The notes beneath the pieces were generated by a model. The model saw only the letters and a program-made list of their open reading frames with translations, was not told where the DNA came from and ran no database searches. From a virus (Duplodnaviria > Heunggongvirae > Uroviricota > Caudoviricetes), in the IMG/VR virus record IMGVR_UViG_2778261360_000015, positions 1 to 3,308 of that record: a stretch of 3,308 bases of DNA; one strand, 5' to 3'. Below, in pieces: positions 2,053-2,624 of the stretch. A program made the position numbers and the translations under genes. Every line of letters begins with the position of its first letter. Position 1 is the first letter of the stretch.

Positions 2053-2136
2053 TTATCCCCATCGACAAATCGAGAACACAACAAACGCTGCTGCGAATAC
2101 CACCCCCAGAGTTACGATTGCATCAGGCCAGCTCAT
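2053..2136 (-). CDS. Candidate 27-aa single-transmembrane-helix small membrane peptide (not in the supplied ORF track)
   Basis: Hand translation of minus-strand codons from 2136 down to 2053 gives MSWPDAIVTLGVVFAAAFVVFSICRWG then TAA. The ATG (2134-2136) overlaps the TGA (2133-2135) of the upstream 163-aa gene in an ATGA arrangement. AGGAGG (plus 2144-2149, read on minus) lies 7 nt upstream of the ATG. The stop is 4 nt before the ATG of the 80-aa gene. A 19-residue hydrophobic stretch (aa 6-24, nt 2065-2121) is flanked by a polar MSWPD N-terminus and an RWG C-terminus. Confidence 0.5.
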   Translation of the reverse strand: MSWPDAIVTLGVVFAAAFVVFSICRWG

Positions 2137-2624
2137 TGATTCACCTCCTGCCTGTCGTCCGGCATTCGCTCACTACAGCTTATCCAACCATCCGGAGTTA
2201 CCGGAGAGTTGCCATCCAGCGCGTTCAACTTGTAAGCCTGGCTTACAGGTTCGGCACTATGAAGCATGGCTGCGCGGCAGGCGTTCCAGCCTGTAGCGTA
2301 TGCAGCCGCTTTGCTGCTGTCTTCAACTGGCGCATCCTGCCAATACATTTCTTCCGGCACTATCGGCGCTGGAGGGGCGGCAAATAGATATCCGCCAAAG
2401 TCAGGAAGCTCTCCAATGGCCTGTACGAACTTTTGTTTGCCTACGTCAACTCCTAATGGGTAATGAGCTATAATCTTTGCCACCGGCTCTGTTTCCAGCG
2501 ATACCAGTGCAATTCGTGCCAGTTCTTCCGCTTCTTCTGCTGGCAGTACAACATTGCTACCAGGTCCGTATGTTTCGCGCCACTGCTTGATTGTCAGCAG
2601 TCGCCCTTTGGTAATAGTGATCAT
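2133..2624 (-). CDS. Ea22-like early-region phage protein; the C-terminus carries only the first part of a DUF551-like motif (apparently truncated)
   Basis: 163-aa ORF from the track. ATG at 2622-2624 overlaps the stop of the upstream 171-aa gene (ATGA at 2621-2624). The C-terminal EPVSQAYKL...DGWISCSERMPDDRQEV resembles the linker and start of DUF551 as seen in ead/Ea22-like prophage proteins (recalled pattern PVSQGYKLP.WIPVSERLPE), but the ORF stops about 13 residues after the Trp where DUF551 normally continues about 50 more residues to a THWMPLP end. GC content is visibly higher here than in int. Confidence 0.75.
   Translation of the reverse strand: MITITKGRLLTIKQWRETYGPGSNVVLPAEEAEELARIALVSLETEPVAKIIAHYPLGVDVGKQKFVQAIGELPDFGGYLFAAPPAPIVPEEMYWQDAPVEDSSKAAAYATGWNACRAAMLHSAEPVSQAYKLNALDGNSPVTPDGWISCSERMPDDRQEVNQ
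2144..2149 (-). promoter_or_regulatory. Shine-Dalgarno sequence (AGGAGG) for the 27-aa membrane-peptide ORF, embedded in the last codons of the Ea22-like gene
   Basis: Plus 2144-2149 is CCTCCT, which reads AGGAGG on the minus strand, 7 nt upstream of the ATG at 2134-2136. Confidence 0.5.

Follow-up and report, generated by a model that had tools for sequence, protein, structure and literature searches.

A lambdoid prophage gene that begins a recognizable DUF551 domain and stops almost immediately afterwards raises the question of how the rest of the domain came to be missing, and of whether the small hydrophobic reading frame that starts at its stop codon arrived with the same event. The gene lies in the window, by which we mean the whole 3,308-nt stretch of a caudoviral IMG/VR record (IMGVR_UViG_2778261360_000015) that was analysed here. 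Our comparisons indicate that it is very probably an in-frame internal deletion allele of a mosaic lambdoid accessory gene of the exo-xis ('ea') region, and that its 3' end is native.

Results

Every gene of the window is encoded on the minus strand, at the integrase-proximal end of an E. coli lambdoid (Stx-type) prophage as judged from the open reading frame list and Pfam, and the nearest phages are PhiR5_1 (98.6% identity), VT1-Sakai, YYZ-2008 and BP-4795. Read along that strand, a 171-aa ORF (2621..3136; PHROG_9263, E 1e-120; a CDS in phage PhiR5_1) is followed by the gene in question, which encodes a 163-aa exo-xis-region protein of the Eaa/PHROG_60 type with a core-less DUF551 (2133..2624). 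Next come a 27-codon hydrophobic small ORF (MSWPDAIVTLGVVFAAAFVVFSICRWG; 2053..2136), a DUF4222 gene of 80 aa from an ATG at 2048 (1806..2048; Pfam E 1e-12, with the same gene annotated in RefSeq), a 44-aa ORF (1668-1802), a DUF1233 excisionase (1395-1649) and the integrase (75-1361). An ATGA overlap joins the stop of the 171-aa ORF to the start of the 163-aa gene within one operon-like array, and the DUF4222 gene forms part of a conserved 3' block shared with the small ORF. No Rfam family was found in the window, and promoter and terminator scans of it gave background levels only. The region is the exo-xis or ea region, which is mosaic, non-essential and transcribed early (PMC10834534, PMC7093339).

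The DNA of the 171-aa ORF (window 2621-3136) is identical in strain KA0011 (L001 3322-3837), where RefSeq annotates only a 179-nt 'frameshifted' pseudogene. The suggestion that this ORF is intact here and broken in RefSeq genomes was rejected because of that identity, and the label in KA0011 is an annotation choice. VT1-Sakai (L021 3100-3700) carries a genuine 2-nt deletion in the same gene.

The 163-aa ORF (2133-2624, minus strand) ends in ...GWISCSERMPDDRQEVNQ before its stop, a terminus also written as ...NSPVTPDGWISCSERMPDDRQEVNQ or ...SPVTPDGWISCSERMPDDRQEVNQ. Residues 146-161 fall on positions 1-16 of the 68-position Pfam profile for DUF551 (PF04448; E 7.7e-5), which places the domain remnant (GWISCSERMPDDRQEV) at 2142..2189. 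An HMM search therefore bore out the original prediction that the C-terminus is the start of a DUF551 domain followed by an abrupt stop: the whole-protein score of 23.9 bits lies above the gathering cut-off of 22 bits and derives solely from the N-terminal motif, whereas intact relatives cover positions 1-68 of 68 with 59.6-74.8 bits. The 16 retained residues correspond to the domain's conserved N-terminal motif, with its invariant Trp and Cys, and the stop follows the conserved Trp by 16 residues (W147 to Q163) rather than by the roughly 13 first estimated. Profile positions 17-68 are missing, including the C-terminal HWMPLPEPP motif, and the near-invariant W...P..P C-terminal columns are absent. 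In BLASTP the intact 215-aa relative P0001 is 97% identical to the 163-aa protein over residues 1-161; divergence begins after ...CSERMP, where P0001 goes on into the domain core and the 163-aa protein stops.

Beyond this motif the protein belongs with PHROG_60 (E 2.4e-45; residues 1-161 on profile positions 116-237 of 461), a group of Eaa/DUF551-bearing phage proteins of unknown function. The designation 'Ea22-like' proved a loose one, as the Ead_Ea22 coiled-coil profile (PF13935) gave no Pfam match in the 163-aa protein at E<=1; that annotation is carried by neighbouring upstream genes in related prophage loci. NCBIfam returned no match for the protein and the PDB no sequence match, and its exact sequence is RefSeq WP_096885262.1, a 'DUF551 domain-containing protein'. 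Structural models add to this picture. The AlphaFold model of P0139, a DUF551-only protein (pLDDT 80.7), contains four beta strands at residues 23-28, 33-39, 44-46 and 58-63; since all of them lie within the missing segment, the 163-aa protein lacks the predicted four-stranded beta core. The model of intact P0001 was poor (pLDDT 45.4) and was left out of fold searches. Separately, the E5-type DUF551 core (L006 1594-1950) gave a weak, sub-threshold Pfam match to a Tudor domain (PF21743, E 0.003), in agreement with weak Tudor/SH3-like matches of the DUF551 structure model.

Intact alleles define what was lost. The gene ends ...SERMPDKLIPV...HWREMPAAPQQEVNQ-stop in JB2 (L003), ...SERMPEMGERQ...HWMPLPEPPQEVNQ-stop in E5 (L006) and ...SERMPNDAQW...WMPLPEPPQEVNQ-stop in 377323_2f (L014), so that all three intact DUF551 alleles terminate in (P)QEVNQ-stop, the same tail of Q-E-V-N-Q and a TGA stop that the window retains at 2133..2150. 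From CAGGAGGTGAATCAATGA onward, JB2, E5 and the window share identical DNA that spans the 27-codon ORF and reaches into the DUF4222 gene. Against the intact JB2 allele the window shows a clean in-frame gap of 135 nt (45 codons), and gaps of similar size appear against other intact alleles. Since intact alleles have both the QEVNQ-stop and the same DNA downstream, it is the domain core alone that the window allele lacks. These DNA alignments place the deletion junction zone at codons GAC AGG CAG GAG (2145..2156), with the domain's 5' flank upstream and the gene's own 3' tail downstream. The alignments uphold the proposal of a deletion rather than a simple frameshift, and likewise the statement that no downstream frame continues the domain, the missing codons being absent from the DNA. 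The further proposal of a replacement that fused in new sequence did not survive, given the tail and downstream DNA shared with the intact JB2 and E5 alleles, and 2049-2136 is no insertion relative to related prophages, since alleles whose domain is intact have this very sequence.

The retained tail also carries a translation signal. The sequence CAGGAGGTG (2142..2150, with GGAGG at 2144-2148) forms the Shine-Dalgarno of the 27-codon ORF, 7 nt ahead of its ATG. The original prediction was thus right that codons of the DDRQEV stretch, specifically Q-E-V, double as a ribosome-binding site, but the claim that they now do so for an inserted ORF fell away, because they have the same role in intact alleles. 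There too, the Q-E-V codons act as Shine-Dalgarno of the downstream gene, and the tail, stop codon, ATGA overlap and CAGGAGGTG ribosome-binding site are all native and not made by the deletion. Consistent with this, GCAGGAGGT is invariant over 6 loci, with the downstream gene differing in some of them, and CAGGAGGTG is kept ahead of the small ORF even with a non-DUF551 upstream gene (L007/L015; 933W has AAGGTGAATCAATGA).

Several variants of this arrangement were observed. JB2 (L003 2833-3699) holds a rare intact core beside this 3' block, a type present in 6 genomes, and the allele there falls into two pieces, an N-terminal pseudogene and a 105-aa ORF. In JLK-2012 (L020 2771-2800) the joint change CAGGGGGTGAATGATGA lets the DUF551 gene read on to ...PPQGVNDELA-stop, so that it overlaps the small-ORF start by several codons. 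The joint ...AGGTGAATCAATGA also persists at loci whose upstream gene does not belong to DUF551 (L007 1514-1640, L015, L023 680-790) and encodes a beta-clamp-domain protein or 933W L0139. The latter ends ...KVNQ-stop; in L007/L015 the upstream gene terminates before the joint, which falls within an annotated 40-aa ORF. As the joint is kept with non-DUF551 genes, the 'VNQ-stop' tail is part of the small-ORF module and not of DUF551.

The small ORF itself behaves as a gene. Its ATG and the TGA of the upstream gene overlap as ATGA, and 4 nt separate its own stop from the DUF4222 ATG. Six DNA variants were recovered, from the window, CFSAN029787, the P0012 locus, 377323_2f, BP-4795/VT1-Sakai and JLK-2012; every one has exactly 27 codons with the common pattern M-x-W-P-[DE]-A...RWG-stop, third-position changes are in excess, and dN/dS is 0.15-0.30. 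The ORF was found by tblastn in 70 phage records and is intact in 68 of 69 IMG/VR contigs, with DUF4222 next in 66 of 67, and a further variant lies just ahead of hokW/sokW in 933W. Screened for membership of known small-protein or toxin families, the ORF matched no profile in Pfam, PHROGs or NCBIfam. It is rarely annotated, appearing as a few 27-28-aa 'hypothetical proteins' and a 40-aa version with an upstream start; the KA0011, BP-4795, JLK-2012, VT1-Sakai and 933W records leave it unannotated at this position. Judged by its codon pattern, it is a conserved native small gene under purifying selection, a putative membrane peptide gene of 27 aa that is mostly unannotated and would be translationally coupled to the gene before it.

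The segment absent from the window is the most variable part of the domain. Among the fetched proteins (P0001-P0192, n=192) there are at least 17 DUF551 core types of ~45-60 residues, hypervariable and unrelated-looking, and both flanks of the core are conserved at the DNA level. The core behaves like a swappable cassette in relatives of window 2142-2200. Many cores begin MP-x-x-x-Q-x-V and all end PPQEV. The core of P0139, L016 and L018, with the protein sequence MPDDGQEV ... PPQEV, starts GATGACGGGCAGGAAGTT and ends CCGCCGCAGGAGGTG; its DNA has GGGCAGGAAGTT at the start and CCGCAGGAGGTG at the end, a GCAGGA.GT direct repeat, and GCAGGA recurs at both core ends because both encode Q-E-V. This type gave the best 5'-side match among all compared core types (16/22 nt). 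A deletion between the GCAGGA repeats predicts GATGACGGGCAGGAGGTG and the window reads GACGACAGGCAGGAGGTG, which differs at 2 nt, including a Gly-to-Arg codon. At the candidate parent loci L016 and L018 other genes follow, not the small ORF.

An intact 'MPDDRQ...' allele was sought among the 192 fetched proteins, 70 IMG/VR contigs and GTDB species representatives, with 0 matches, and a duplicated 52-aa bait returned short proteins only, every DDRQ-containing one already truncated. For lack of such an allele, the P0139 type stands as the best candidate, and neither the parent nor the exact breakpoints are proven. A second independent deletion was considered in P0032 (...SERMPEKNQ) and rejected, as that protein is flagged partial and an intact 'MPEKNQNVLISV...' core exists.

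The truncated allele is already catalogued, ordinary and widespread in this mosaic prophage region. Among 5,426 complete E. coli genomes, 125 carry the 50-nt junction, 121 at >=99% identity and all on the chromosome, and O104:H4 2011C-3493 is one of them. An exact-pattern scan of IMG/VR found 70 contigs with ...ATGCCGGACGACAGGCAG, all 70 of which continue GAGGTGAATCAATGA; they carry 26 distinct upstream proteins of 27-431 aa in 14 length classes, and the upstream reading frames are open in nearly all junction carriers. No full-length homolog was found to end naturally at the same position, and the many proteins that do end there all carry the same deletion junction. The isolated phage PhiR5_1, which is viable, has the same truncated tail on a 252-aa protein, which makes the allele compatible with a viable phage. 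The 5' DUF551 linker encoding SPVTPDGWISCSERMP, present in 2,409 of the 5,426 genomes with up to 8 sites in a single genome, is the obvious recombination joint. Since all 70 contigs share one continuation on many architectures, the data point to one junction haplotype that travels with the 3' block and has been joined by recombination to many 5' modules. The pattern fits a single old deletion that spread by recombination at the conserved SPVTPDGWISCSERMP linker.

Discussion

The comparisons presented here provide a framework for how the short C-terminus would have arisen. Normally the C-terminal DUF551 is built of three segments: the conserved N-terminal motif (SPVTPDGWISCSERMP), a beta-strand core that is hypervariable and ~45-60 residues long, and the conserved end HWMPLPEPPQEV.... 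A single in-frame deletion probably removed the whole core together with the HWMPLPEPP motif, so that the N-terminal motif now runs straight into the last 5 codons of the gene itself (QEVNQ) and its stop. Because the 3' end was kept, the Q-E-V Shine-Dalgarno, the ATGA overlap and translation of the 27-aa peptide and DUF4222 genes would have been left untouched. We infer that the short direct repeats GCAGGA.GT on either side of the 'MPDDGQEV...PPQEV' core type most likely gave rise to the deletion, through slippage or illegitimate recombination. The deleted 3' end would then have stayed linked to the small ORF-DUF4222-xis-int block, and recombination at the conserved linker would have placed it behind many different upstream modules. 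The predicted product keeps its N-terminal part and would be unable to form the DUF551 fold.

The alternative that keeps most weight, though we consider it unlikely, holds that selection favours the short form as a natural isoform. On this view, either loss of the core was adaptive, or the tail was short to begin with and the various cores came in later as cassettes. The allele is common, with 125 genomes and 70 viral contigs carrying it, and a viable phage is among its carriers. It terminates upstream ORFs that are otherwise open and fall into at least 14 length classes, and the cores, of >=17 types, are highly diverse between conserved flanks. Indeed, the open upstream frames in nearly all carriers could mean that the short form is selected and is not a decaying remnant. 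However, the retained 16 residues, with the invariant Trp and Cys, make sense only as the leftover of a domain, and a single, nearly invariant junction contrasts with many deeply diverged cores. Hitch-hiking with the linked int-xis-DUF4222 block, moreover, spreads the allele without selection.

A more specific version, which we regard as quite improbable, would treat DUF551 as a swappable, fast-evolving target-recognition cassette and explain the core-less allele, in ~2% of E. coli genomes, by an advantage of its loss. If that were true, losing the core might avoid recognition by host or rival-phage defence or alter the lysis-lysogeny decision, and the 3' end might be preserved only to keep translation of the 27-aa peptide and DUF4222 coupled.

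The idea that a deletion or replacement fused in foreign DNA with a new hydrophobic peptide ORF, for which old codons have only now become the ribosome-binding site, accounts for a truncated domain and for a hydrophobic ORF that starts at the stop codon. We judge it very improbable. The same 27-codon ORF, QEVNQ-stop and CAGGAGGTG stand behind intact domains in JB2 and E5, where the DNA is identical; diverged small ORFs stand behind intact domains in 377323_2f, the P0012 locus, BP-4795 and VT1-Sakai; and purifying selection on the small ORF (dN/dS 0.15-0.30) also speaks against this idea. A simple frameshift or nonsense mutation, with the rest of DUF551 still there out of frame, is scarcely credible, as nothing beyond the short ORF itself favours it, the small ORF and DUF4222 gene come right after the stop, and 135 nt or more of core is missing from the DNA. 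An assembly or sequencing artefact in the window can be dismissed, having no support and facing an identical junction in 125 complete genomes, O104:H4 2011C-3493 included, and in the isolated phage PhiR5_1.

The preferred reading, an in-frame deletion in a mosaic accessory gene, places the window protein beside well-described relatives. Lambda Ea22, its Stx-phage variants and other DUF551 carriers such as YfdS of CPS-53 are early-transcribed, non-essential, mosaic exo-xis genes, and DUF551 has been described as a 'portable domain' of unknown function on varied N-terminal modules (PMC10834534; PMC4776307). Unlike Ea22, the window protein lacks the Ead_Ea22 (PF13935) coiled-coil signature, and pro-lysogenic activity has been shown for Ea22. 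The closest comparisons are BP-4795 ORF5 (YP_001449242.1), VT1-Sakai H0068 (BAB19624.1) and E. coli P0001/P0002, which have an intact DUF551 (PF04448) at the same locus, from the ea22-like genes to xis. All of these share the conserved linker SPVTPDGWISCSERMP with the window protein; P0001 and P0002 are near-identical to it over the N-terminal 155 residues (97-99%), and in BP-4795 and VT1-Sakai the same small ORF and DUF4222 gene follow. They differ in carrying the full 68-position domain ending HWMPLPEPPQEV..., whereas the window protein lacks positions 17-68.

In lambdoid mosaicism, conserved short sequences at the ends of genes and domains act as recombination joints. The (C)AGGAGGTGAATCAATGA joint likewise persists with non-DUF551 upstream genes, but here one joint-to-joint event would have removed the domain core instead of swapping it. 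Taken alone the allele matters little; it is a tidy example of domain loss and swap at conserved joints in lambdoid accessory genes. It also corrects a database label, since RefSeq names these truncated proteins 'DUF551 domain-containing' though just 16 of 68 profile positions remain. The conserved 27-aa peptide gene in Stx phages (933W, VT1-Sakai, BP-4795), a side observation of this study, may prove the more useful result.
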